Below are positions 1 through 12,700 of a stretch of 17,791 bases of DNA, piece by piece. The notes below the pieces were generated by a model that worked only from the letters and a program-made list of their open reading frames with translations, made no database searches and was not told the origin of the DNA. The position numbers were made by a program, and so were the translations under genes. Origin of the DNA: Gemmatimonadota bacterium. Lineage in GTDB: Bacteria; Gemmatimonadota; Gemmatimonadetes; Gemmatimonadales; GWC2-71-9. The stretch lies in the NCBI GenBank assembly GCA_003221005.1, contig QHTZ01000042.1:1-17791 (forward strand). The letters are read 5' to 3'. Each line of letters begins with the position of its first letter. Within the stretch, counting starts at the first letter, position 1.

Positions 1-711
1 TCGGGCGCGCAGGCGTGGTTCGCGCGTGGCCTGCGACTCGCGGAAGCGTCGGGCGAGCGGCGCTTCCTCGGCCGCTTGGAGCGGCAGCTGGGCGTGCTGG
101 CGCGCCGGCAGGGCGACCTCGCGGCCGCGGGCGAGCATCTCCGGAAGGCGCGGGAGTGGCTCGAAGCCGCCGCCACGCCGGAGGAGATGGCCCGCGTGTT
201 GAGCGCTCAGGGTCATCTCGAGGCTCAGCTGCGGCGTCATGCCGCCGCATCGGCGGCCTACCGGGAGGCGCTCGCCTGGGTCCAGCGCGAGCCACGAGAT
301 CCGGGACTGGAGCTGTCCATTCGTCTCAGTCTCGCCGAGCTGCAGCTCGAAACGGGCCGGCTGCTCGAGGCGGAGGAGGAAATGCGCCGCGCCGAACAGC
401 TCGCGATCGCGAGCAATCTCACAAGCCACCTGGTGCAGGTGTACACACTGATGGGCAAGCTTCGTGGCCGGCAGCAGGACGAGACGGGGTTTGTGTTCTT
501 CGAGCAGGCGATCGACTTGTGCCACATGCTCGAGCGGTCGCCGGCCGCGGAAGGGCAGGTATACCTCGAATACGGCCTGTTTCAGGATCGCCTGCACCAC
601 CGGGAGGAAGCGCGCGCCTACCTCGAACGCGCCCGCGAGCTGTTCGGCACGGTGGGGGAAATGGTGGCCCGCGAACGGGCGGAGGAGGCGCTGCAGAAGC
701 TGTCGGCTTGA
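1..711 (+). CDS. TPR-like helical repeat protein, 5' truncated by window edge
   Basis: Frame is open from base 1 (SGAQAWFARGLRLAE...) to TGA 709-711. Repeating amphipathic helices such as LGVLARRQGDLAAAGEHLRKA, YREALAW, FFEQAIDL and YLERARELF are typical of TPR repeats. Confidence 0.75.
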   Translation, partial: SGAQAWFARGLRLAEASGERRFLGRLERQLGVLARRQGDLAAAGEHLRKAREWLEAAATPEEMARVLSAQGHLEAQLRRHAAASAAYREALAWVQREPRDPGLELSIRLSLAELQLETGRLLEAEEEMRRAEQLAIASNLTSHLVQVYTLMGKLRGRQQDETGFVFFEQAIDLCHMLERSPAAEGQVYLEYGLFQDRLHHREEARAYLERARELFGTVGEMVARERAEEALQKLSA

Positions 712-736
712 ACCACGCAGCGCTCTCTGCTATGTT
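708..736 (+). promoter_or_regulatory. Putative sigma70-type promoter (TTGAAC-N17-TATGTT, with extended -10 TG)
   Basis: TTGAAC 708-713, 17-nt spacer, TG at 728-729, TATGTT 731-736. Stands out in a high-GC background. Confidence 0.55.
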
Positions 737-753
737 GTTGTGGCACAACGGCC

Positions 754-790
754 AGGGCCCGCGGCAGCTGCGGCGCGGGCCTTTTCGTTT
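754..790 (+). terminator. Intrinsic terminator hairpin
   Basis: GGCCCGCG 756-763 pairs with CGCGGGCC 774-781, followed by TTTTCGTTT 782-790. Confidence 0.75.
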
Positions 791-828
791 GACCGGCGAC
801 CTGAGAGAGGGACGGAGATACGCGCGCC

Positions 829-2013
829 ATGCGCTCCGCAACACGCCTGGACATCCTGGGCACCGAGGATGCCTACGTCGTGCTCGACGCGGCCAAGCAG
901 CTCGAGGCCGCGGGACACCGGGTGTTGCACCTCGAGATCGGCGAGCCGGACATGCCGACGCCGCCCCATGTGGTGGAAGCGGGCGTACGCGCCTTGCGCG
1001 AGGGTCGCACGCGCTACGCCGTCGCCGCCGGGCTCCCCGAGCTGCGCGACGCGATCGCGCAGTCGCTCGCGGCCCGCGGCGTGCGCGCGTCCGCGGAAAA
1101 CGTGATCGTCACGCCCGGCGCGAAGCCGATGCTGTTCTGCGCCGCGCTCGCCGTGATCGAGCCGGGCGACGAGGTGCTCTGTCCCAACCCCGGCTTTCCC
1201 ATCTATGAGTCGGTCGCGCGGTTCGCCGGCGGCCAGCCCGTCTACTACCCGCTCGCCGAGTCGCGAGCCTTCGCCCCCGACGTGGACGCGATCGCGGCGC
1301 GGGTGACGCCGCGCACCCGCGTCCTGATCGTCAATCTGCCGCACAACCCGACCGGCGGCGTCGCGAGCGCGGACGACCTGGCGCGCCTGGCTGCGCTCGC
1401 GGAGCGGCACGACCTCTGGCTCATCACCGACGAGGTCTACGGCCAGCTGCGCTACGACGGGCGCTGCGACAGCATCGCGGCACTCCCCGGGATGAGTGAG
1501 CGCACGATCATCGTGGACGGCTTTTCCAAGGCGTACTGTATGACGGGGTGGCGTCTGGGGTACGGGGTGATGCCCGCCTGGCTCAGCGAGCCGATGACCA
1601 CGCTCGTCATCAACAACCTGTCCTGCACGGCGACGTTTGTGCAGCACGCCGGCGTTGCGGCCCTGACGGGGCCGCAGGACCCGGTGCACCGGTTCGTGGC
1701 GTCGCTCCGCGCGAAGCGCGACATGCTGGTCCGCGGGCTGAATGCGATCGACGGAGTGCGGTGCGCGACGCCGGCGGGCGCGTTTTACACCTTCCCCGAC
1801 GTGAGCGGCGTCCTCGCGCGGACCGGGCTCGCGTGCGGGGCGCTCGCGGAGCGGCTCCTCGCGGAGGCGCACACGGCCGTCCTCGCCGGGACCGCGTTCG
1901 GCCCGGGAGGCGCGGGGCATTTGCGCCTCTCGTACGCGGGCGCCGCCCGGGACCTGGAACAGGCGCTGGAGCGCATCCGCGGCTGGGTCGGGAGCCTGGC
2001 CGCAGTGGCTTGA
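829..2013 (+). CDS. PLP-dependent aminotransferase class I/II (aspartate aminotransferase-like)
   Basis: Motifs LEIGEPD, GLPELR, VTPGAK, NLPHNPTG, ITDEVY, DGFSKAYCMTGWRLG (PLP lysine), PAGAFY and HLRLSY. GGAGA RBS upstream. Confidence 0.93.
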   Translation: MRSATRLDILGTEDAYVVLDAAKQLEAAGHRVLHLEIGEPDMPTPPHVVEAGVRALREGRTRYAVAAGLPELRDAIAQSLAARGVRASAENVIVTPGAKPMLFCAALAVIEPGDEVLCPNPGFPIYESVARFAGGQPVYYPLAESRAFAPDVDAIAARVTPRTRVLIVNLPHNPTGGVASADDLARLAALAERHDLWLITDEVYGQLRYDGRCDSIAALPGMSERTIIVDGFSKAYCMTGWRLGYGVMPAWLSEPMTTLVINNLSCTATFVQHAGVAALTGPQDPVHRFVASLRAKRDMLVRGLNAIDGVRCATPAGAFYTFPDVSGVLARTGLACGALAERLLAEAHTAVLAGTAFGPGGAGHLRLSYAGAARDLEQALERIRGWVGSLAAVA

Positions 2014-2020
2014 GCGCCGC

Positions 2021-2048
2021 TTGACGGGATGTGCCCCCGCACTATGTT
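2021..2048 (+). promoter_or_regulatory. Putative sigma70-type promoter (TTGACG-N16-TATGTT)
   Basis: TTGACG 2021-2026 and TATGTT 2043-2048, immediately upstream of the riboswitch leader. Confidence 0.65.
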
Positions 2049-2068
2049 ACGGAAGACAATCGTCGTGT

Positions 2069-2119
2069 CGTGGTGATTTGCCGCGTATTGCCGCCACGCT
2101 AAATAAGGGCTAAAAAGCG
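2069..2119 (+). ncRNA. SAM-II (SAM_alpha-like) riboswitch aptamer
   Basis: CGTGGT-GATTTG-CCGCGTATTGCC-GCCACG-CTAAAT-AAGG-GCTAAAAA-GCG matches the SAM-II layout. P1 is 2069-2074/2093-2098. Conserved GATTT, TTGC, TAAA and GCTAAA words are present. Pseudoknot closure CGC 2082-2084 with GCG 2117-2119. Recognised by eye, not by covariance model. Confidence 0.85.
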
Positions 2120-2122
2120 ACC

Positions 2123-2155
2123 GCCCGCGGCATTCACTGTCCGGGCTATTTTGTT
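2123..2155 (+). terminator. Riboswitch-associated intrinsic terminator (attenuator)
   Basis: GCCCG(C)GGCA 2123-2132 pairs with TGTCCGGGC 2138-2146, followed by TATTTTGTT 2147-2155, just before the RBS GAGGA 2156-2160. Confidence 0.7.
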
Positions 2156-2163
2156 GAGGACCC

Positions 2164-3429
2164 ATGAGTTCGACGGCGACCCCCAGGCCCACCCTGCGGC
2201 GAGAGCTTACGGCCCGACCACTGCGTTGCCGCAACTGCGGCGCGGACCGGGCCGCAGCCCCCGTCTCGATCTGCGACCAGTGCTTGGGGCCGCTCGACCC
2301 CGTGTACGATCCCGCGCGCCCGCTTCCGGACGCGAACGCGATCGCCGCGCGCGCGCCGTCGTTGTGGCGGTACCGGGAGTGGCTGCCGTTCCAAGGGGAG
2401 CCGGTCCATTCGCTCGACAGCGGATTTACGCCCCTCGTCGCCGCGCCGGCGCTGGCGCGCCGCCTCGGTGTGGCGCGCGCCTGGGTCAAGAACGACACGG
2501 TGTGCCACCCGTCACTCTCGTTTAAGGACCGCGTGGTCGCGGCGGCGATCAATGCCGCCGCCGCCTTCGGACTCGACACGATCGGGTGTGCGTCGACCGG
2601 CAACCTCGCGAACGCGGTGGCGGCGCACGCCGCTCGGGCCGGGCTCACCGCCTGGGTCTTCATCCCGGAAGAGCTCGAGGCGGGGAAGGTGCTGGGGACG
2701 AGCGTCTATGGCCCGAAGCTGGTGCGCGTCCGCGGCACGTACGACGACGTCAACCGCCTGTGCGCTCAGGTCGCCGATCGGTTCGGCTGGGGGATCGTGA
2801 ACGTCAACCTCCGGGGCTATTACGGCGAGGGGTCGAAGACCGTAGCCTACGAGATCGCCGAGCAGTTGGGCTGGCGGTTCCCCAACGCCGTGGTCGCTCC
2901 GATGGCGGGGGGCTCGCTGCTCAGCAAGCTGCGGAAGGGGTTCGCCGAATTCCTCGACGCGGGGCTCGTCCGGGGGGCATCGCCCCGGTTGTACGGAGCC
3001 CAGGCCTCGGGGTGCGCCCCGATCGTTCGCCTCGTGGAGCGGGGGGGCACCCAGATCGAGCCTGAGATCCCGCGCACGATCGCTCGGTCGCTCGCCATCG
3101 GGAACCCCGCGGATGGCGTGTTCGCGATGCGAGCCATGCGCGATTCCGGCGGTTGGGCGGCGGCGGTGAGTGACGAGGACCTGGTGGACGGAATCCGGTT
3201 CCTCGCGGAGGACGTGGGGGTGTTTGCCGAGACGGCAGGCGGCGTCACCGTGGCCGCGGCCTTGGAACTCGCGCGGGGTGGACGCCTGCGCTCAGACGAC
3301 GAAGTCGTGCTGTGCATCACGGGTCACGGCCTGAAGACGCTGGAAGCGGTGACCGGCGTCCTGTCCGAGGCACCGGTCATCGCTCCCCGGCTGCGGGAAG
3401 TCGCGGCGCTCGTCGAGCGGTCCCCTTGA
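2164..3429 (+). CDS. Threonine-synthase-like fold-type II PLP enzyme, probably O-phosphohomoserine sulfhydrylase (MetM-like)
   Basis: N-terminal CRNC...CDQC zinc ribbon, SLWRYREWLP, GFTPL, SFKDR (PLP lysine), CASTGNLA, EGSKTVAYEIAEQLGW, SLAIGNPADG and ITGHGLKT. The family call is secure. The specific function is inferred from the SAM riboswitch and adjacent sulfur carrier. Confidence 0.9.
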   Translation: MSSTATPRPTLRRELTARPLRCRNCGADRAAAPVSICDQCLGPLDPVYDPARPLPDANAIAARAPSLWRYREWLPFQGEPVHSLDSGFTPLVAAPALARRLGVARAWVKNDTVCHPSLSFKDRVVAAAINAAAAFGLDTIGCASTGNLANAVAAHAARAGLTAWVFIPEELEAGKVLGTSVYGPKLVRVRGTYDDVNRLCAQVADRFGWGIVNVNLRGYYGEGSKTVAYEIAEQLGWRFPNAVVAPMAGGSLLSKLRKGFAEFLDAGLVRGASPRLYGAQASGCAPIVRLVERGGTQIEPEIPRTIARSLAIGNPADGVFAMRAMRDSGGWAAAVSDEDLVDGIRFLAEDVGVFAETAGGVTVAAALELARGGRLRSDDEVVLCITGHGLKTLEAVTGVLSEAPVIAPRLREVAALVERSP

Positions 3430-3441
3430 GGAGGTCATGAG

Positions 3442-3717
3442 ATGTCCATCACGGTAAACCTGCCCTCGGTGCTCGCGGCACACGCCGGTGGCGCCCGGAC
3501 CATCGAGGCCAACGGCCGGACCCTCGGCGAGGCCGTCGCGGACTTGGCCACGCGCTTCCCTGCGCTCGGGCCCCGACTCCGGGACAAGGACGGCAAACCG
3601 TACCCGTTCGTGGTGTTCTACGTCAACGATGAAGACGTGCGCTTCCGCGGCGGGTTCGGCGCCCCGGTCCAGGATGGCGACGAGGTCACGGTCATCCCGG
3701 CGATCGCCGGGGGGTGA
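3442..3717 (+). CDS. MoaD/ThiS-family ubiquitin-like sulfur carrier protein
   Basis: 91 aa, FYVNDEDVRF motif (CysO/MoaD-like), free C-terminal IPAIAGG. Strong RBS GAGGAGG 3428-3434. Confidence 0.92.
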   Translation: MSITVNLPSVLAAHAGGARTIEANGRTLGEAVADLATRFPALGPRLRDKDGKPYPFVVFYVNDEDVRFRGGFGAPVQDGDEVTVIPAIAGG

Positions 3718-3784
3718 GGCGTCGTCTTCCTCCGGTCGGCGACCTCCTTGGCATGCCGTCGTCAGCGCATCAGCTTCCATACAG

Positions 3785-4873
3785 ATGAAACAATGGCTTG
3801 AAACCCGTCAGGTGCTCGACCGTCTGGCCGAGCTCCGCCGCGCGGGCACCCGCTCCGCCCTCGCGACGGTCGTCCGCGTGCGCGGGTCGGCGTACCGTCA
3901 TGAAGGAGCCAAGCTCCTTGTGGCCGAAGACGGAAGCGCCACCGGGAACGTGAGCGGGGGTTGTCTCGAGCGGGACGTGCGGGATGTGGCGCTTGAGGTG
4001 ATCCGCTCCGGTACGCCGCAGCGCCGCTCGTACTGCTCCGGAGCGGATGAGATCGCCGCCTGGGATCTGGGAGTGGGCTGTGAAGGGGAGGTGGAGGTAT
4101 TCGTCGAGCCCGCGCCGGTGCCCATGCACCTCGAGCGCGAGCTGCTCGAGGGCCGGGAAGCCTTTGCGGTCTGTACCGCAATCCCTGGAAAGGGGGAAGA
4201 GGGAAGGGGGAAGCGTGTGGTCGTGACGAGCGCGACAGCGGAAGGTGACCTTGGCTCACCCGCGCTGACCACGGCGGGGATTGTGCGGGCCCGCGCGCTG
4301 TTGCGCGAAGAGCGCTCGGCGCTCGAGGAGATTGCGGGACACACCGTGTTCATCGATGTACTCGTCCCGCCGCCCGAGCTCGTAGTGTTCGGGGCGGGCG
4401 ACGACGCCCGGCCGTTAGTACGATGCGCCGCGGACGTCGGGTTTCGGGCGATCGTCGTGGACCGCCGCCCGGGGTATCTCACCGCCGAGCGGTTCCCGGC
4501 GGCCGCGCGGCTCGTGCAAAGCGACGCGGCGCAGCTGTCGGAGCGGCTCACCCTCGATGAGTCGAGCTACGCTGTGGTCATGACGCACAACTTCGCGGAC
4601 GACATGGCGTACGCTGGAGCCCTGCTCGAGACGACGGTGGCCTACATCGGCATGCTGGGGCCGCGCGAGCGCACCGAGCGCATCCTGCGCGATGTGGGCA
4701 GCGGGTCGCGCGACACCGTGCGCGTGTACGGGCCCGTTGGGCTCGACATCGGCACCGATGGGGCGGAGCAGGTGGCCCTGTCGGTGGTGGCGGAGATCCT
4801 TGCGGTGCGCTCCGGGCGACGGGCGCGATCGCTGCGCGAGCGCGGCGTTCCGATCCATGCCCCGGGCGACTGA
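3785..4873 (+). CDS. xdhC: XdhC/CoxI-family molybdoenzyme maturation factor
   Basis: ALATVVRVRGSAYR, GNVSGGCLE, LGVGCEGEVEVFVE, LVVFGAGDDARPL, VMTHN, YIGMLGPRER and PVGLDIG. Start reassigned to ATG 3785 (MKQWLETRQ) because the longer ORF overlaps the moaD-like gene. Confidence 0.9.
   Translation: MKQWLETRQVLDRLAELRRAGTRSALATVVRVRGSAYRHEGAKLLVAEDGSATGNVSGGCLERDVRDVALEVIRSGTPQRRSYCSGADEIAAWDLGVGCEGEVEVFVEPAPVPMHLERELLEGREAFAVCTAIPGKGEEGRGKRVVVTSATAEGDLGSPALTTAGIVRARALLREERSALEEIAGHTVFIDVLVPPPELVVFGAGDDARPLVRCAADVGFRAIVVDRRPGYLTAERFPAAARLVQSDAAQLSERLTLDESSYAVVMTHNFADDMAYAGALLETTVAYIGMLGPRERTERILRDVGSGSRDTVRVYGPVGLDIGTDGAEQVALSVVAEILAVRSGRRARSLRERGVPIHAPGD
4187..4213 (+). repeat. Purine-rich GGGAAGG-type short repeat inside xdhC
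   Basis: GGAAAGGGGGAAGAGGGAAGGGGGAAG, translated as GKGEEGRGK. Confidence 0.55.
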
Positions 4874-5468
4874 GGGCCTCCGCGTCGGCGGCGTGGTGCT
4901 CGCCGCCGGGGCCTCGCGCCGCATGGGTCCGGGGCGGAACAAGATGCTGCTCGAGCTGGACGGCGAGCCCCTTGCGCGACGCGCCGCGCGGCGGGCGCTA
5001 GCCGCCGGACTCACGCCCGTGGTCGTCGTGCTCGGGCACGAAGCCGACCAGGTGCGGGCGGCACTCGCCGGCCTCAATTGTGACTGTGTGTTCAACCCCG
5101 CCTTCACGGGACCGACGAGCGAGTCGCTGCACCTGGGGCTGCGCCGGCTCGGCCCTGAGGCCGGCGCAGTTGTCGTGATGCTCGGTGACATGGTGCGCGT
5201 CTCAGACGACATGCTGGCTCGGCTGATCGCAGCCGGTCGTGAGAGCGAGGCGCCGCTCGTGGTGTCGCGCTACGGAGACGTGACGGCGCCTCCACTGCTG
5301 TTCCGCCGCGCGCTGTTCGACGAGCTGCTCGCCTGGACGGGAGAAGGGTGCGGCAAGGCGGTGGTGCAGCGTCACCGCGACAGCGCATACTACCTCGACT
5401 GGCCTGCGGAACGACTCGCTGACGTCGACACTCCGGAGGACTTCCAGCGGCTCACGAGCGGGGTATAA
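4857..5468 (+). CDS. MocA/MobA-like nucleotidyltransferase (molybdenum cofactor cytidylyltransferase-like)
   Basis: VVLAAGASRRMG..NKMLL, LGDM, PPLLF and DVDTPEDF. Adjacent to xdhC. Start taken as ATG 4857, overlapping the xdhC 3' end. Confidence 0.88.
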   Translation: MPRATEGLRVGGVVLAAGASRRMGPGRNKMLLELDGEPLARRAARRALAAGLTPVVVVLGHEADQVRAALAGLNCDCVFNPAFTGPTSESLHLGLRRLGPEAGAVVVMLGDMVRVSDDMLARLIAAGRESEAPLVVSRYGDVTAPPLLFRRALFDELLAWTGEGCGKAVVQRHRDSAYYLDWPAERLADVDTPEDFQRLTSGV

Positions 5469-5498: not shown

Positions 5499-6161
5499 AT
5501 GCTACGTGTAGTCCGGTGGACCGTGACGCTCTCCCTCGGCGTGGTCGCGGGGCAAAGTCTCGCTGCCCAGGAGCTCGCCCGCATTTGCGCGTCGGCCGGC
5601 AAAGTGACTGTGGGGCAATGGGCGACGTACGCCGGAGCCGGCGGTCAGGTCGACCGTGAGGCCCTGCGCCTCGCGATCGTGGGTTCCGAGCGGCAGGGAG
5701 ATAGCACGCTCTATTGGTTCGAGGTCAACCACCAGGGGGCCGGCGGCGCCGGCCGTGGCGAGATCTGGCAGCTGCTGGTGCCCGGTCTGGGACTCGGCGC
5801 CACCGAGGTGCGCGGGCTGATCGTGAAGCTGGGGACCGCCCCGGCGATGCGGGTGGATCAGATGCTGCCGCTCATGACCGGGCAGATGGGTCAGACCAAT
5901 CCCGCGCTCGAATTCGCGCGGCGCTGCGCGAGCGCTCGTGCCCTGGGGTGGGAGACGGTCAACGTGCCGGGGGGCACGGTGCGCGCGCTGCACGCCCGGG
6001 ACGCCGAAGGGTGGGAGGCCTGGGTGTCGGAGGACGTGCCCTTCGCCTTCGTCAAGCTGCGGACGGGGGATGGGGGCGTGCTGGTCCTGACCGGCCGCGG
6101 CACTGACGCGAAGTCGTCGATCACCGATCAGGGTCCGGGACTGCTGCTGCCACGACCCTGA
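5499..6161 (+). CDS. Hypothetical exported protein
   Basis: Signal-peptide-like N-terminus (MLRVVRW..LSLGVVAGQSLAAQ) and a beta-rich body with ETVNVPGGT and WVSEDVPF motifs. TATAAT at 5464-5469 upstream. Confidence 0.7.
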   Translation: MLRVVRWTVTLSLGVVAGQSLAAQELARICASAGKVTVGQWATYAGAGGQVDREALRLAIVGSERQGDSTLYWFEVNHQGAGGAGRGEIWQLLVPGLGLGATEVRGLIVKLGTAPAMRVDQMLPLMTGQMGQTNPALEFARRCASARALGWETVNVPGGTVRALHARDAEGWEAWVSEDVPFAFVKLRTGDGGVLVLTGRGTDAKSSITDQGPGLLLPRP

Positions 6162-6237: not shown

Positions 6238-6903
6238 ATGACGCCCGTAGCCCGTCGCCTGACGTATCCCCTCTGCCTGCTGACCGGCGCGCTGTTGATT
6301 ATGGTCGCCGCGGCGCTGCACCCGGATCTCGAGGGCGACGGCGCGGCGCAGTTGGTGATCATCGCGCGGTCCGACGCGTGGCGCGCGATTCATTGGGCGT
6401 TCCTGTTCGGGTTCGTCCTCTCGCTCACGGGGCTGGTCGGTGTCGTGGCCAGTCATGTGGGGACGGCGGGCGAGGGGTCCGCGCGCGGCGGCGTGGCCGT
6501 CGCGGTGCTGGCTTACAGCGCGTGGATGGTGCTCGTGGCGTTCATGGTGGGGACGGGTTGGATGCTTGCCCAGAGCTACCTGGCGGCGGAGCCGGGGCTG
6601 ACGGCGACACGGGCTGTATTCCTGTATGACATGACCCATCCGTTCGCCCTCGCCGCCCAGCGGACAGCGGCGTTCGCCCTCGGGATCGCGACGTACCTGC
6701 TTGGGTGGGGCGTGCTCCAGGGGCGAGCGCTACCGCGGGGGCTGGGTTGGGCGGGCGTGGGGAGCGGGCTCGTGGCGATCGTCCTGGCCCTGGGGTTCGG
6801 GGAGGGGACGAAGGCCGACCAGGCGGCCTTCGTGCTCCCCGTGCTGTGGCAGTTCGTGGTCGCCCTGACGCAGCTCGCCGGGCGGCGCGGCGCGGCGGCC
6901 TAA
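6238..6903 (+). CDS. Hypothetical integral membrane protein (about 6 TM helices)
   Basis: Multiple hydrophobic segments, an LHP motif after TM1, and GGAG RBS upstream. Confidence 0.8.
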   Translation: MTPVARRLTYPLCLLTGALLIMVAAALHPDLEGDGAAQLVIIARSDAWRAIHWAFLFGFVLSLTGLVGVVASHVGTAGEGSARGGVAVAVLAYSAWMVLVAFMVGTGWMLAQSYLAAEPGLTATRAVFLYDMTHPFALAAQRTAAFALGIATYLLGWGVLQGRALPRGLGWAGVGSGLVAIVLALGFGEGTKADQAAFVLPVLWQFVVALTQLAGRRGAAA

Positions 6904-8499: not shown

Positions 8500-10437
8500 C
8501 TACGCTTTCTTGTTCTTCTCGTCGTCCACGATCTCGTAGTCCGCGTCGACCACGTTGTCCTTCTTCTGGTCTGCGGCTGGCGCCTCCGCCCCTCCCCCGG
8601 TGCCCCCCCCTCCCCCTCCCGGTGCGCCGGCGCCGCGCGTGGCGGCGTACAGCGACGCCCCCGCAGCCGAATACGCCTGCTGCAGCTCCTCGAGAGCCTT
8701 GGAGATCTCGTCCGGGTTCCCGGAACGGAGGGCCTGCTTGGCACTCGCGACCGCGCCGTCGAGCCGCGACTTGAGGGACGCGTCGAGGCGGTCGACCCAT
8801 TCCTTGGAGTTCTTCTCCACCTCATACACCATGGTGTCTAGGCGGTTGCGCCGCTCGATCTCGTCGCGCCGCCGCTTGTCCTCGGACGCGTGGGCATCGG
8901 CGTCCTTCACCATACGGTCGATGTCCTTGTCGGACAGACCCGACGAGGCCTCGATGCGGATCTTCTGCTCCTTGCCCGTCGCCTTGTCCTTGGCCGAAAC
9001 GTGCAGGATGCCGTTCGCGTCGATGTCGAACGTCACTTCGACCTGGGGCACGCCGCGCGGCGCGGGCGGGATTCCCGTGAGCTGGAACTTGCCGATGGTG
9101 CGGTTGTCCAGGGCCATCTGGCGCTCTCCCTGGAGCACGTGGATCTCCACCGTCGTCTGATTGTCCTCGGCGGTGGAGAAGATCTCCGACTTCTTGGTCG
9201 GGATCGTCGTGTTCCGCGGAATCAGCACCGTGGTGACGCCGCCCAGGGTTTCGATCCCGAGCGACAGCGGCGTGACGTCGAGCAGCAGGATGTCCTTCAC
9301 CTCGCCCGCGAGCACGCCACCCTGGATCGCGGCCCCGATGGCCACGACTTCGTCCGGGTTGACGCCCTTGTGAGGCTCCTTGCCGAAGACCTTCTGCACG
9401 ATTTCCTGGACCTTGGGCATCCGCGTCTGCCCGCCCACCAGGATCACCTCGTCGATGTCGCTCGGCTTGAGGCCGGCGTCCTTCAGCGCCTGCTCCATCG
9501 GCGCCATCGTACGCTGGACCAGGTCGTCCACGAGCTGCTCCAGCTTGGCGCGCGTGAGCGTGATGTTCAGGTGCTTCGGGCCGGACTGGTCCGCCGTGAT
9601 GAAGGGGAGGTTGATCTCCGTCTGCATCACCGTGGACAGCTCCATCTTCGCCTTCTCCGCGGCCTCCTTGAGGCGCTGCAGCGACATGGGGTCCTTCGAC
9701 AGGTCGATGCCCTGGTCGCGCTTGAACTCCGCGATCAGCCACTCGATGATGCGCGCGTCGAAGTCGTCACCGCCCAGGTGCGTGTCGCCGTTGGTGGACT
9801 TCACTTCGAACACGCCTTCGGCGAGCTCGAGAATCGAGATGTCGTACGTGCCGCCGCCCAGGTCGTACACAGCCACCTTCTCTTCCTTCTTCTTGTCGAG
9901 ACCGTAAGCGAGGGCCGAAGCCGTGGGCTCGTTGATGATCCGCACCACATCGAGCCCGGCGATCTTGCCCGCGTCCTTGGTGGCTTGCCGCTGCGAGTCG
10001 TTGAAGTAAGCGGGAACCGTGATGACCGCCTTCTCGACTTTATGGCCGAGGTAGTCTTCAGCGGTTTGCTTCATCTTCTGGAGGATCATGGCGGAAATCT
10101 CGGGCGGAGTGTAACGCTTCCCCTGGATATCCACCGACGCGAGGCCGTTCGGTCCCTCGACGACCTTGTAGGGGACGCGCTTCATCTCCTCCACCACCTC
10201 GTTCATCCGCCGCCCCATGAACCGCTTGATCGAGAAGACGGTGTTCTGCGGGTTCGTGACGGCCTGGCGCTTCGCCACCTGGCCGACCAGCCGCTCACCG
10301 TCCTTCGTGAATGCGACCACCGACGGCGTGACCCGCCCGCCCTCCGCGTTCGGGATGACGACGGGATCGCCACCCTCCATCACGGCCACCACGGAGTTCG
10401 TGGTCCCGAGGTCGATTCCAATGATCTTCTCTGCCAT
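8500..10437 (-). CDS. dnaK: Molecular chaperone DnaK (Hsp70)
   Basis: [60 protein letters not shown], and C-terminal VVDADYE. RBS GAGGAG at 10446-10451. Confidence 0.99.
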
Positions 10438-10497
10438 CAGCGTGACTCCTCAGCCAGATAGGGATTGATGCGGAGACTTGCCCGTTGGTCGCAAGCG

Positions 10498-10512
10498 GCA
10501 AAGACCGTGCCT
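10498..10512 (-). promoter_or_regulatory. Putative sigma54 (-24/-12) promoter for dnaK-degP
   Basis: Minus strand reads AGGCACGGTCTTTGC, matching TGGCAC-N5-TTGC with correct GG-N10-GC spacing, about 60 nt upstream of the dnaK start. Confidence 0.7.
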
Positions 10513-10589
10513 GGAGAAAGCGCCAGTATGGCAGAGCGGCCGGCTCCTGTCGAGGGCGAGGCGTGGCCAACCGGGCTACATTGTCCGGC

Positions 10590-11351
10590 GTGTTCCCGTA
10601 CAAGGACGACAATCCCACCGTGCTTGCGCCGATCGTCACGATCGGCATCATCGTGCTCAACGTGCTCGCCTGGCTCTTTCTCCAGGGCGCCGGGGCGAGC
10701 GAGCCGCTGGGGGCCTCGGTCTGCCAGCTGGGGCTGATCCCGGGCGAGCTCTTGGGAACGGTGCCGCCTGGCACCAGCGTGCCGCTCGGACCCGGGATGG
10801 CGTGCGTGATCGAGGGGCCGCACTACGCCACCGTGCTCACGTCGATGTTCATGCACGGAGGCTGGCTGCACATCATCGGCAACATGTGGTTCTTGTGGGT
10901 GTTCGGAAACAACATCGAAGACTCCATGGGGCACGCGCGGTTTCTGGTGTTCTACCTGGTGTGCGGCGTCGCGGCCGCCGCCGCTCAGGTGCTGGTGGAC
11001 ACGCACGCGCGGGTGCCGATGGTGGGCGCGTCCGGCGCCATCAGCGGCGTGCTCGGCGCATACGTCGTGCTCTATCCGCGCGTGCGGGTTCACACGCTGA
11101 TCACGCTGGGCTTCTTCTTTACCACCGTAGCGCTGCCGGCGTACTTCATGCTGGGGTACTGGTTCGTGCTGCAGCTGCTGCTCGGCGCGGTCGGCATCGC
11201 GGGCCGTGTGCAGGGGGGCGTCGCGGTTTGGGCGCACGTCGGCGGGTTTCTCGCAGGCCTGGCGCTGATAAAGCTGTTCGTCAACCCAGCCTTGATGGCG
11301 CAGCACGTGTCGCCCGACTCGGGCGAGTGGTGGCGGCGCCAGCCGGGCTAG
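10590..11351 (+). CDS. Rhomboid-family intramembrane serine protease
   Basis: SMFMHGGWLHIIGNMWFL, catalytic GASGA and WAHVGG. Start reassigned to GTG 10590 (MFPYKDDNPT), a typical N-terminus for this subfamily. Confidence 0.93.
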   Translation: MFPYKDDNPTVLAPIVTIGIIVLNVLAWLFLQGAGASEPLGASVCQLGLIPGELLGTVPPGTSVPLGPGMACVIEGPHYATVLTSMFMHGGWLHIIGNMWFLWVFGNNIEDSMGHARFLVFYLVCGVAAAAAQVLVDTHARVPMVGASGAISGVLGAYVVLYPRVRVHTLITLGFFFTTVALPAYFMLGYWFVLQLLLGAVGIAGRVQGGVAVWAHVGGFLAGLALIKLFVNPALMAQHVSPDSGEWWRRQPG

Positions 11352-12700
11352 GCTTCCTCTGCGTGGTGCTTGATGGTCTTGCCTTCCACCAAGAACACCA
11401 CGTCCTCAGCGATGTTCGTGGCGAGGTCGGCGACGCGCTCGAGATTGCGGCTCACGAGAAACAGCTCCATCGCGGCGCCGATGACGTGGGGGTCCTCCAT
11501 CATGTGCGTGAGCAGGATTCGGAAGACGGAGTGATGTAACGCGTCGACCAGGTCGTCGCGGCGGCAGATCTCCCGCCCCAGCTTCGAGTCACCCTTCACG
11601 AACGCGGCCAAGGCGCCGGACAGCATGGCGCGCGCCTGGCGCGCCATCTCCAGCAGCTCCGGCTCGGGGGGGACGAGGCGCGCGGCGGCGAGACGCTCCG
11701 TGGACTGCGCGATGTTGGCGGCGTGATCGCCCACGCGCTCCAGGTCGTTCGCGATCTTCATCGCCGCCATGAGCAGGCGCAGGTCTCGCGCCATGGGTTG
11801 CTGGGTGGCGAACAGGTCGATGACCAGCTCTTCGATCTTGAGCTCGAGGGCGTCGATGGCGTGGTCGCCCGCGATGACCTGCGCGGCAAGATCGCTGTCG
11901 CGGCGCAGCAGGGCGTCCAGCGGGTCGGCCGCGAGCACGCCGTCCGCCATGGATTCGATTAGGGTGTGCGTCTCCTCCCGCTCACGCCGCAGCTCAGCGA
12001 AGCGCTGGTCGAGCTGCTGGTGCATCGCGCGGAGCGCGAGGACGTGGTCCGCGATCTCGGGGATGCGCGCGTCGGGAAATTCGGGCGCCTCGCCCGCCGC
12101 GATCGCCCGAGCAGCGGTGCCGAGCTGCACTAGAGGCCGCGCGATCGTGCCGCTCAGCGCCCACGCGAGCAGCGCGGCGACCGCGAGCGCCGCCAGCCCC
12201 GCCAACGCGACGCCGCGCTGCACGGCGTCGATCGCGGCGTCCACGGCGGCGAGCGTCGTGGAGACGCGCACGACAGCGAGGCCGGGCGGGCCGCCGCGCA
12301 CCGCCACATACAGCCGGCGCTCGTTGGTGGACGCGCTGAGACGCTGGTCACGGCCCGCCCCCGTCGCGAGCGCCTGCACCACCTCGGGGCGGCCGGCGTG
12401 GTTCTCGAGCTGCGCCAGCGCGGCGCGGTCGAATTCGGTGTCGCCGCGGACCCGGCCCTTCGGATCGATGAGCGTCAATCGGTGACCGATCAGCGCACCC
12501 AGCCGCCGGGGGGCGTCGGGCCAGGCGAGCGAGTCGGGCGGCAGTAGGGTCGCCACGAGCCGCGCCTCGTGCTCGAGGCCGGTCGCGATGTCCGCTTCCA
12601 GGTGCCATCGCAGCACGTGGTCGGCTGCCACGATCAAACCGACCACGGTGGCGGCGAGCAGCAGGCTCGAGCCGACGAACAGCCGAGCCGCGAGCCTCAC
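11348..12700 (-). CDS. Chimeric ORF: PhoR-like sensor N-terminus (TM-sensor-TM-HAMP) fused in frame to N-terminally truncated PhoU
   Basis: aa 1-260: two TM segments, RLTLIDPKGRVRGD and LENHAGRPEV sensor motifs, HAMP (IARPL), and PAS start IESMADGVLAAD. aa 261-450: PhoU motifs QQPMARDLR, DLERVGDHAANIA, DDLVD and NLERVADLATNIAEDV. No HisKA or HATPase motifs. Confidence 0.85.
   Translation of the reverse strand: MRLAARLFVGSSLLLAATVVGLIVAADHVLRWHLEADIATGLEHEARLVATLLPPDSLAWPDAPRRLGALIGHRLTLIDPKGRVRGDTEFDRAALAQLENHAGRPEVVQALATGAGRDQRLSASTNERRLYVAVRGGPPGLAVVRVSTTLAAVDAAIDAVQRGVALAGLAALAVAALLAWALSGTIARPLVQLGTAARAIAAGEAPEFPDARIPEIADHVLALRAMHQQLDQRFAELRREREETHTLIESMADGVLAADPLDALLRRDSDLAAQVIAGDHAIDALELKIEELVIDLFATQQPMARDLRLLMAAMKIANDLERVGDHAANIAQSTERLAAARLVPPEPELLEMARQARAMLSGALAAFVKGDSKLGREICRRDDLVDALHHSVFRILLTHMMEDPHVIGAAMELFLVSRNLERVADLATNIAEDVVFLVEGKTIKHHAEEA

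Follow-up and report, generated by a model that had tools for sequence, protein, structure and literature searches.

A probable MetM/MetO-type homocysteine synthase module behind a SAM-II-type riboswitch in a Gemmatimonadota bacterium

A SAM-II-type leader ahead of a ThrC-like gene and a carrier gene

We analysed a 17,791 nt stretch of DNA from a Gemmatimonadota bacterium (GenBank assembly GCA_003221005.1, contig QHTZ01000042.1), referred to throughout as the window; it is contig C92 of a 2.79 Mb assembly that is 93.9% complete. The window holds a putative S-adenosylmethionine (SAM)-II riboswitch, a gene for a pyridoxal 5'-phosphate (PLP) enzyme with the fold of threonine synthase (ThrC), and a gene for a small ThiS/MoaD-fold sulfur carrier, in that order and on the same strand (Table 1). 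We consider it very probable that the enzyme and the carrier form a homocysteine synthase module of the MetM/MetO type. A preliminary description of the same DNA had placed the three elements accurately to the base, including the 12 nt spacer between the two genes (positions 3430-3441, with GGAGG inside) and the Gly-Gly end of the carrier (...IPAIAGG). It had also taken the host to be non-actinobacterial; indeed, the nearest public relatives of the genome are metagenome-assembled genomes of Gemmatimonadales.

Table 1. Features at and around the ThrC-like gene, in window positions.
Feature	Positions	Strand	Basis
Class I/II aminotransferase	829..2013	+	Pfam/NCBIfam family match; directly 5' of the leader
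Promoter-like site, TTGACG, 16 nt, TATGTT	2021..2048	+	Consensus match only
SAM-II-type aptamer	2069..2119	+	RF00521 match and homologous copies above the gathering score
Hairpin GCCCG...CGGGC (2123-2146), then UAUUUUGUU	2123..2155	+	Candidate terminator/expression platform, role inferred
Shine-Dalgarno GAGGA, 3 nt before the ATG at 2164	2156..2160	+	Sequence
MetM-like ThrC-fold PLP enzyme, 421 aa	2164..3429	+	Family, clade W, residue signature, co-fold
MetO-like ThiS/MoaD-fold carrier, 91 aa, C-terminus ...AGG	3442..3717	+	PF02597, co-fold

The preliminary description had proposed SAM-II control of the gene pair, and the leader matches RF00521 (SAM_alpha, that is, SAM-II) at positions 2069-2117 on the forward strand, with 31.7 bits and an E-value of 1.3e-5 in a 301 nt search. 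Because this score lies below the Rfam gathering score of 36, a gathering-threshold scan of the whole window gave no match. Homologous copies score 52.5 bits on contig C120 of the same genome, 43.1 at locus L012, 40.8 at L009, 40.7 at L123, which is the same-genus orthologue, and 37.2 at L022, all above the gathering score; the copies at L015 (34.7) and L068 (33.7) fall below it. We treat the window copy as a member of the SAM-II family because it is homologous to copies that pass. Three helices can be drawn in the aptamer, named as in the SAM-II literature: P1 (2069-2073 with 2094-2098), a proposed P2b (2088-2091 with 2109-2113) and a proposed P2a (2082-2084 with 2117-2119). Across 30 distinct sequences, P1 (CGUGG/CCACG, alignment columns 8-12 with 35-39) and P2b (UUGC/GC.AA) are invariant. 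The P2a pair of columns 22 and 61 is C-G in 18 rows, G-C in six, something else in three and gapped in the last three, and its covariation score was reached by none of 500 shuffles. What speaks against the assignment is the sub-gathering score of the window copy and the restriction of covariation to this one pseudoknot pair, with one slid control scoring higher (0.057 versus 0.047), so that covariation support is thin.

The distribution of the element extends the argument. Eleven Gemmatimonadota leaders were combined into a profile, R1; its P1 brackets are one column off register, making it essentially a sequence profile, and its matches were cross-checked against Rfam on only eight sources. 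Of the 21 loci L008-L028, 17 have an R1 match upstream of the ThrC-like gene and in its orientation, and R1 also matches upstream of all nine genes of the window type (group W, below) in a set of 21 Gemmatimonadales genomes, which comprises the window genome and 20 relatives that are kin and so not independent. Weak matches (20.8-27.1 bits) were found at four loci of Terriglobia and Methylomirabilota. When the window genome itself was searched with R1, only two matches were found, namely the window leader and C120:44208-44286 (L152:1501-1579). The gene directly 3' of the C120 element (L153:91-1971) encodes a bifunctional homocysteine S-methyltransferase/methylenetetrahydrofolate reductase (MTHFR; 726.6 bits, cut-off 453), and this neighbour sets methionine synthesis as the regulon of the element. 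A search of the window genome for SAM-I elements found none. In other phyla, a gathering-threshold scan found SAM-I elements (RF00162, 65-86 bits) upstream and on the same strand in eight of 16 loci, from Planctomycetota, Acidobacteriota, Verrucomicrobiota and Binatia; four of the remaining eight are the loci with weak SAM-II-like matches, and four have no element. Two unrelated SAM-sensing RNAs have thus been recruited to one gene family, which is strong evidence for a role in methionine or SAM metabolism. Judging from sequence, we conclude that the leader riboswitch is real and belongs to the SAM-II class. Our literature search returned no paper that joins SAM-II riboswitches and Gemmatimonadetes.

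How the leader might act is suggested by the sequence that follows the aptamer. The minimum free energy fold of the leader includes the hairpin at 2123-2146, with a free energy no better than that of shuffled sequences (z 0.30), and same-genus leaders have a T8 run where the window has its post-hairpin tract. A candidate antiterminator helix (2081-2086 with 2127-2132) can pair in 82% of alignment cells, three of them compensatory. We propose that plentiful SAM would turn the operon off, probably by loop capture and hairpin release. When SAM is scarce, the loop sequence GCCGCG (2081-2086) would pair with CGCGGC (2127-2132) and block the 2123-2146 hairpin; when SAM is bound, loop bases 2082-2084 would be locked in the pseudoknot with 2117-2119, freeing 2127-2132 to complete the hairpin, which together with the U-tract would stop transcription. 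Two results count against this model: a terminator scan of positions 1900-3900 called nothing, and the antiterminator helix scored no better than slid controls. A promoter scan of the same 2 kb called one site, against a mean of 0.1 in shuffled sequence.

A clade of ThrC-like enzymes apart from housekeeping threonine synthases

The product of the ThrC-like gene has a PALP domain (207.6 bits) and scores 244.9 bits against TIGR00260, the NCBI threonine synthase equivalog, for which the cut-off is 167.1. Cysteine synthase models fit it poorly (cysM and cysK, at most 35 bits), and we ruled out cysteate synthase (TIGR03844), for which the score was 65 bits against a cut-off of 324.9. A phmmer search of solved structures returned 1UIM, 2ZSJ, 6CGQ and 2D1F, with E-values from 3.8e-54 to 2.1e-43; the matches included only classical ThrCs and no MetM entry.

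The window genome encodes three ThrC-like proteins. Besides the window gene, there is a copy on contig C61, in an operon with homoserine kinase and aspartate kinase-homoserine dehydrogenase genes, and a PRK08197-type copy on contig C40 (C40:38561-39718; 512 bits, cut-off 303), between uvrC and larC. The preliminary description had asked for a phylogeny and for a second thrC, and both bear it out: the thrB-thrA-thrC operon on C61 and the third paralogue on C40 belong to two clades from which the window gene stands apart, and the window gene is joined by an actinomycete locus with a SAM-I element, a ThrC-like gene and a carrier ending in Gly-Gly. The trees were built from 43 ThrC-like matches (E at most 1e-30) in the 21 genomes, of which 42 were kept after leaving out one protein of fewer than 300 aa (G012_C40_2), together with 23 window-type genes from elsewhere. 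A quick tree of these 65 rows served to define three groups, A (C61 type), C (C40 type) and W (window type), which were then scored on a careful tree of 66 rows, from which the long branch G020_C5_698875 had been removed and to which two actinomycete proteins had been added. Both trees have the same three groups, and branch support in the careful tree is 100/100 for W (34 rows), 99/97 for A and 100/100 for C.

Group W occurs in nine of the 21 genomes, always together with an A gene, a C gene or both, and is never the sole ThrC-like gene. Some complete Gemmatimonadales genomes have only C (G013, G014, G015 and G018) and others have only A and W; A and C therefore each look capable of the housekeeping role, which W never has to fill. 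We conclude that the window enzyme is a ThrC paralogue distinct from the housekeeping threonine synthase.

The actinomycete member of group W that we used as a reference comes from Nonomuraea gerenzanensis. Its protein shares 46% identity with the window protein across 95% of the length; its gene has a SAM-I element (68.7 bits) directly upstream and, directly downstream, a 91 aa ORF ending in VAGG. A tblastn search of plasmid records with the window and Nonomuraea proteins gave no Streptomyces orthologue among the matches listed, and the best 120 homologues of the Nonomuraea protein came only from Nonomuraea, Streptosporangium and close genera.

In W, 19 positions reach at least 94% conservation and set the group apart from A and C alike, many of them in PLP-enzyme motifs, and 15 of the 19 are invariant in a 26-row alignment that spans at least eight phyla. 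Aligned to the Thermus thermophilus ThrC, Y220 of the W enzymes falls at R160, a residue that we take to contact the substrate phosphate, and R217 falls at N157. These two replacements are a plausible route to a changed reaction specificity.

Three further observations on the ThrC-like genes concern the genomes at large. Two apparent threonine synthases, that of the thr operon and the C-type protein, coexist in the window genome. In genome G020, a highly divergent ThrC-like gene (G020:C5:697331-699897, locus L124; end branch 6.1 in the quick tree) directly follows a PF01053-family gene (269 bits). Finally, G016 and G020 share a distinct ThrC-like subclade, and both genomes are without a window-type gene or a strong MetX.

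The carrier, the pathway genes and the proposed reaction

The carrier gene product matches ThiS (PF02597, 52.4 bits). We compared 81 loci (80 homologous loci and the Nonomuraea locus), counting only neighbours transcribed in the same direction as the ThrC-like gene. A carrier homologue is kept in 68 of them, and in four of the 13 misses the enzyme gene itself is cut by a contig end; members carrying the linkage come from at least eight phyla. A MoeZ homologue is found in 21 of the 81 loci and a homoserine kinase in 10. Just under half of the carriers (29 of 68, including all 19 from L008-L026) end exactly at Gly-Gly, and 38, mostly from Acidobacteriota, have tails of one to more than 25 residues beyond it, with one unclear; the tails imply maturation by a peptidase. 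The longest of these, 17 to more than 25 residues in the Acidobacteriota carriers of L040, L059, L063, L073 and L074, are rich in cysteine (...CCSYCG, ...EECCCA), and many other carriers have one to seven extra residues.

Co-folding of the two proteins, from alignments of 26 rows for the enzyme and 19 for the carrier, gave a score of 0.71, and the best of three controls scored 0.00; at the mark used, 116 of 157 solved complexes pass, as do two of 215 mismatched pairs. The runs share at least 86% of their contacts, with a partner pLDDT (predicted local distance difference test) of at least 87. To the confident interface of the model the carrier contributes its C-terminal residues (83 and 85-90), and the enzyme contributes an N-terminal four-cysteine ribbon (24 and 35-43), 194-205, 214, 217, 297-302, 314 and 316. 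The clade-specific N197, R217 and D317 lie within this enzyme surface or next to it. The prediction supports binding between enzyme and carrier, although it may have passed partly because of likeness to solved complexes of carriers with PLP enzymes.

The rest of the machinery that a carrier-dependent route would call for is encoded elsewhere in the genome. The preliminary description had noted that the activating enzyme and the releasing peptidase lie outside the window, and had suggested looking for moeZ and a JAMM peptidase; both are on contig C88. The C88 cluster (C88:5131-8847; loci L006, L099 and L106) runs Rrf2 regulator, rhodanese, CysM, JAMM peptidase (Prok-JAB, 96.3 bits) and a ThiS-like carrier-MoeZ gene. 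This second carrier (...IPSIAGG) reads in frame and without a stop into MoeZ, as one ORF, and an assembly or frame error is possible; the JAMM peptidase, encoded just upstream, could free the fused carrier. The MoeZ part, with ThiF and rhodanese domains, scores 519 bits against NF005902 and 544 against NF005646, both under the cut-offs, and 285.5 against PF00899. A third ThiS-family gene, on contig C106, is a moaD beside moaE and moaA. Three carriers thus have three clear homes, and the window carrier is therefore not needed for molybdopterin. Homoserine kinase is encoded by thrB on contig C61. The absence of metA, metX, metY and metB, another expectation of the preliminary description, held for the first two, as no match to metA and nothing above 26 bits for metX was found in this 93.9% complete genome. 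Of the PF01053 (Cys/Met-PLP) family the genome has two genes.

We infer the substrate, the chemistry and the release of the product as follows. Homoserine kinase would supply O-phosphohomoserine, and MoeZ would adenylate the Gly-Gly end of the carrier and turn it into a thiocarboxylate. The ThrC-fold enzyme would remove the phosphate from O-phosphohomoserine, and the gamma carbon would then be attacked by the carrier thiocarboxylate, rather than by the water that leads to threonine, to yield homocysteine. Release of homocysteine might be direct, or might proceed through hydrolysis of a carrier adduct by the C88 JAMM peptidase, and the SAM-controlled homocysteine S-methyltransferase/MTHFR protein would convert homocysteine to methionine.

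Several observations weigh against a homocysteine synthase, and rival explanations draw on them. The enzyme passes the TIGR00260 cut-off, all of its named relatives are annotated as threonine synthase, and some relatives have the gene beside thrB and thrA, in the manner of a thr operon (at L011 the order is asd, enzyme, thrB, carrier, aspartate kinase-homoserine dehydrogenase). The enzyme could accordingly be a redundant but genuine threonine synthase and the small ORF an unrelated MoaD that serves the XdhC-family and MocA-like genes (3785-5468), which begin 67 nt past the carrier gene across a gap that has no obvious terminator. We find this explanation barely credible. Apart from the window gene, the genome contains a thrB-thrA-thrC operon and a further paralogue, the active-site motifs are altered across the clade, and two classes of SAM riboswitch precede its genes. 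The MoaD role is rejected, since the XdhC/MocA neighbours recur in none of the 81 loci, as opposed to 68 with a carrier, and a moaD-moaE-moaA set exists elsewhere in the genome. The likely misannotation as thrC, which the preliminary description had predicted, stems from the TIGR00260 score.

We also considered that the pair might be a carrier-dependent enzyme making another sulfur compound under SAM control, such as cysteine from O-phosphoserine or a different thio-amino acid. CysM with its carrier CysO is a precedent, and CysM-like genes adjoin the pair at L030 and L065. This, too, is a poor prospect, if slightly less so than a redundant threonine synthase: a separate CysM-JAMM-carrier-MoeZ cluster is encoded in the genome, the recurrent neighbour of the pair is homoserine kinase, the protein has the fold and the conserved STGN and PLP-lysine motifs of O-phosphohomoserine enzymes, the cysteate synthase model scores far under its cut-off, and homocysteine is the substrate of the one further SAM-II target in the genome.

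A third rival starts from the PF01053 genes, which count against our reading in their own right. One of the two, at 513.2 bits, just clears the cystathionine gamma-synthase cut-off of 513, its type is present in all 21 relatives, and a plant-like transsulfuration route from O-phosphohomoserine is therefore possible. Homocysteine might then come mainly from O-phosphohomoserine and cysteine by PF01053 transsulfuration, with the pair in an accessory or moonlighting role, for example as a threonine deaminase, for which the passages of PMC12172450 on a Microcystis ThrC offer a parallel. We think this very improbable. The two SAM-II elements of the genome lie at the window and on C120, and none is found at the PF01053 genes; a deaminase role would leave the linkage to the carrier, MoeZ and thrB unexplained. 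In addition, W genes (nine of 21 genomes, three genera) and strong MetX genes (at least 248 bits; five of 21 genomes, five genera), the latter usually adjoining a PF01053 gene of MetY length, never occur in the same genome, and MetA is found in none of the 21. This pattern fits replacement of the MetX route by W, although seven of the 21 genomes, kin and thus not independent, have neither W nor MetX nor MetA, so that the complementarity is incomplete.

Two more points belong on the negative side. According to the parts of PMC12172450 that concern it, the Microcystis homologue has threonine synthase and deaminase activity and no clear MetM function, so family members may not all behave alike. 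Moreover, orthology to MetM (UniProt A0A059WBP2) and MetO (A0A059W7F4) was judged through the Nonomuraea proteins as proxies. The MetM/MetO reading, which the preliminary description had put forward, is supported nonetheless by clade W, the carrier linkage, the SAM riboswitches, the lack of metA and metX and the co-fold, and we hold to it with considerable confidence.

Some relatives carry additional genes in the operon. In Gemmatimonadota relatives, PanB-like genes, aminotransferase genes or both lie between the SAM-II leader and metO/moeZ/metM; thrB also figures among the genes behind this riboswitch. PanB-like genes are found at L012 (1492-2517; NF001452, 328.7 bits), L016, L017, L018, L020, L024, L026 and L027, and the L012 operon runs riboswitch, PanB-like gene, carrier, MoeZ, enzyme. 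A second, higher-scoring panB is present elsewhere in four of five genomes tested, and the operon copy is therefore a paralogue. Orthologues of the window aminotransferase, 50-76% identical and on the same strand, occur at L008, L015, L016, L017, L019 and L026, and at three of these loci (L015, 1248-2417; L019, 1273-2442; L026, 452-1615) the leader lies upstream of the aminotransferase gene; whether the window aminotransferase belongs to the system is uncertain. It is conceivable, though we think it unlikely, that the Gemmatimonadota pair is central to a more extensive homocysteine branch, under SAM-II control and able to supply its own homoserine, of which the window would be a reduced version. 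Speculatively, the PanB paralogue would hydroxymethylate pyruvate to 4-hydroxy-2-oxobutanoate, which the aminotransferase would turn into homoserine; if so, the branch would be an aspartate-independent route to methionine.

The remaining window genes encode an HtrA-like protease, DnaK, PhoU, a response regulator, a metallo-beta-lactamase-fold protein, an adenosine deaminase and a nucleoside phosphorylase. The ORFs at 15-1208 (+), 5499-6161 (+), 6238-6903 (+) and 10437-11539 (both strands) have no Pfam or NCBIfam match; given a G+C content of 69%, these long unmatched ORFs may be partly spurious.

Significance and relation to known systems

If our reading is correct, annotation pipelines will label the enzyme threonine synthase and its partner MoaD, and metabolic reconstructions of Gemmatimonadota would then show a methionine gap that does not exist and one thrC too many; genomes with clade members, of which there are many in Acidobacteriota, Planctomycetota, Verrucomicrobiota and elsewhere, would suffer the same error. 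MetM-type enzymes could in practice be recognised by the clade-specific residues. More broadly, across the loci compared the ThrC-like/carrier module is widespread, tied to MoeZ and homoserine kinase and captured by two classes of SAM riboswitch, and the range of SAM-II-type riboswitches would extend to Gemmatimonadota.

The pathway with which we compare the module is known from Streptomyces albulus, where, as the relevant passages of PMC13759103 describe, O-phosphohomoserine and MetO-thiocarboxylate give homocysteine in a system that comprises the carrier MetO, MoeZ and Mec. That article and PMC12172450, in the sections dealing with the pathway, cite Hasebe et al. 2024 (Appl Environ Microbiol 90:e0124724) as its source, and the former has it already built into GapMind 2026. 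The corresponding text of PMC12172450 places a SAM riboswitch upstream of S. albulus metM and metO adjacent to it, and describes MetM homologues in cyanobacteria, among them the Microcystis 'ThrC', 51.6% identical to MetM and with a metO-like gene beside it. Since the pathway has been in print from 2024 on and GapMind already includes it, the novelty of our proposal is modest; new here are a host in Gemmatimonadota, control by a SAM-II element, the wide spread of the clade, its residue signature and the operon variants with PanB and aminotransferase genes.

Like MetM/MetO, the window pair combines a ThrC-homologous enzyme misannotated as threonine synthase with an adjacent ThiS/MoaD carrier and an upstream SAM riboswitch, in a genome that encodes MoeZ and a JAMM peptidase elsewhere and has a separate housekeeping thrC. 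It differs in its host, in having a SAM-II element where the actinomycete proxy has SAM-I, and in the encoding of MoeZ as an in-frame fusion behind a second carrier. In addition, the window carrier ends exactly at Gly-Gly and would therefore need no C-terminal trimming, which sets it apart from MetM/MetO.

The leader shares with the SAM-II family (RF00521) the consensus CGUGG-GAUUU...UUGC-CCACG...GCUAAA and its methionine-gene targets. RF00521 is described as the 'alpha-proteobacteria SAM riboswitch', whereas the window copy is in Gemmatimonadota, has a shorter loop, and is separated by a hairpin and U-tract from a Shine-Dalgarno sequence about 40 nt past the aptamer.

Other carrier-dependent systems offer looser parallels. 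In the CysM/CysO/MoeZ/Mec system of Mycobacterium tuberculosis, a PLP enzyme acts on O-phosphoserine with a MoeZ-activated, thiocarboxylated carrier of the ThiS type. The window module resembles it in pairing a PLP enzyme and an O-phospho amino acid with a MoeZ-activated carrier, and the window genome has such a cluster of its own on C88; however, CysM belongs to the cysteine synthase branch and uses O-phosphoserine, whereas the window enzyme lies in the ThrC branch. The HcyS/HcyF/HcyD/MetY system of Wolinella succinogenes takes the sulfur of homocysteine from a protein thiocarboxylate, as we propose here, and uses an O-acetylhomoserine sulfhydrylase of the PF01053 fold with an acylated homoserine; by contrast, the window enzyme has the ThrC fold, and metX and metA were not found in its genome. 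With canonical threonine synthase, finally, the window enzyme shares the fold, the PLP lysine, the STGN motif and, presumably, the substrate O-phosphohomoserine, but it belongs to a separate clade with changed active-site motifs, and its gene has a carrier gene and a SAM riboswitch as neighbours.

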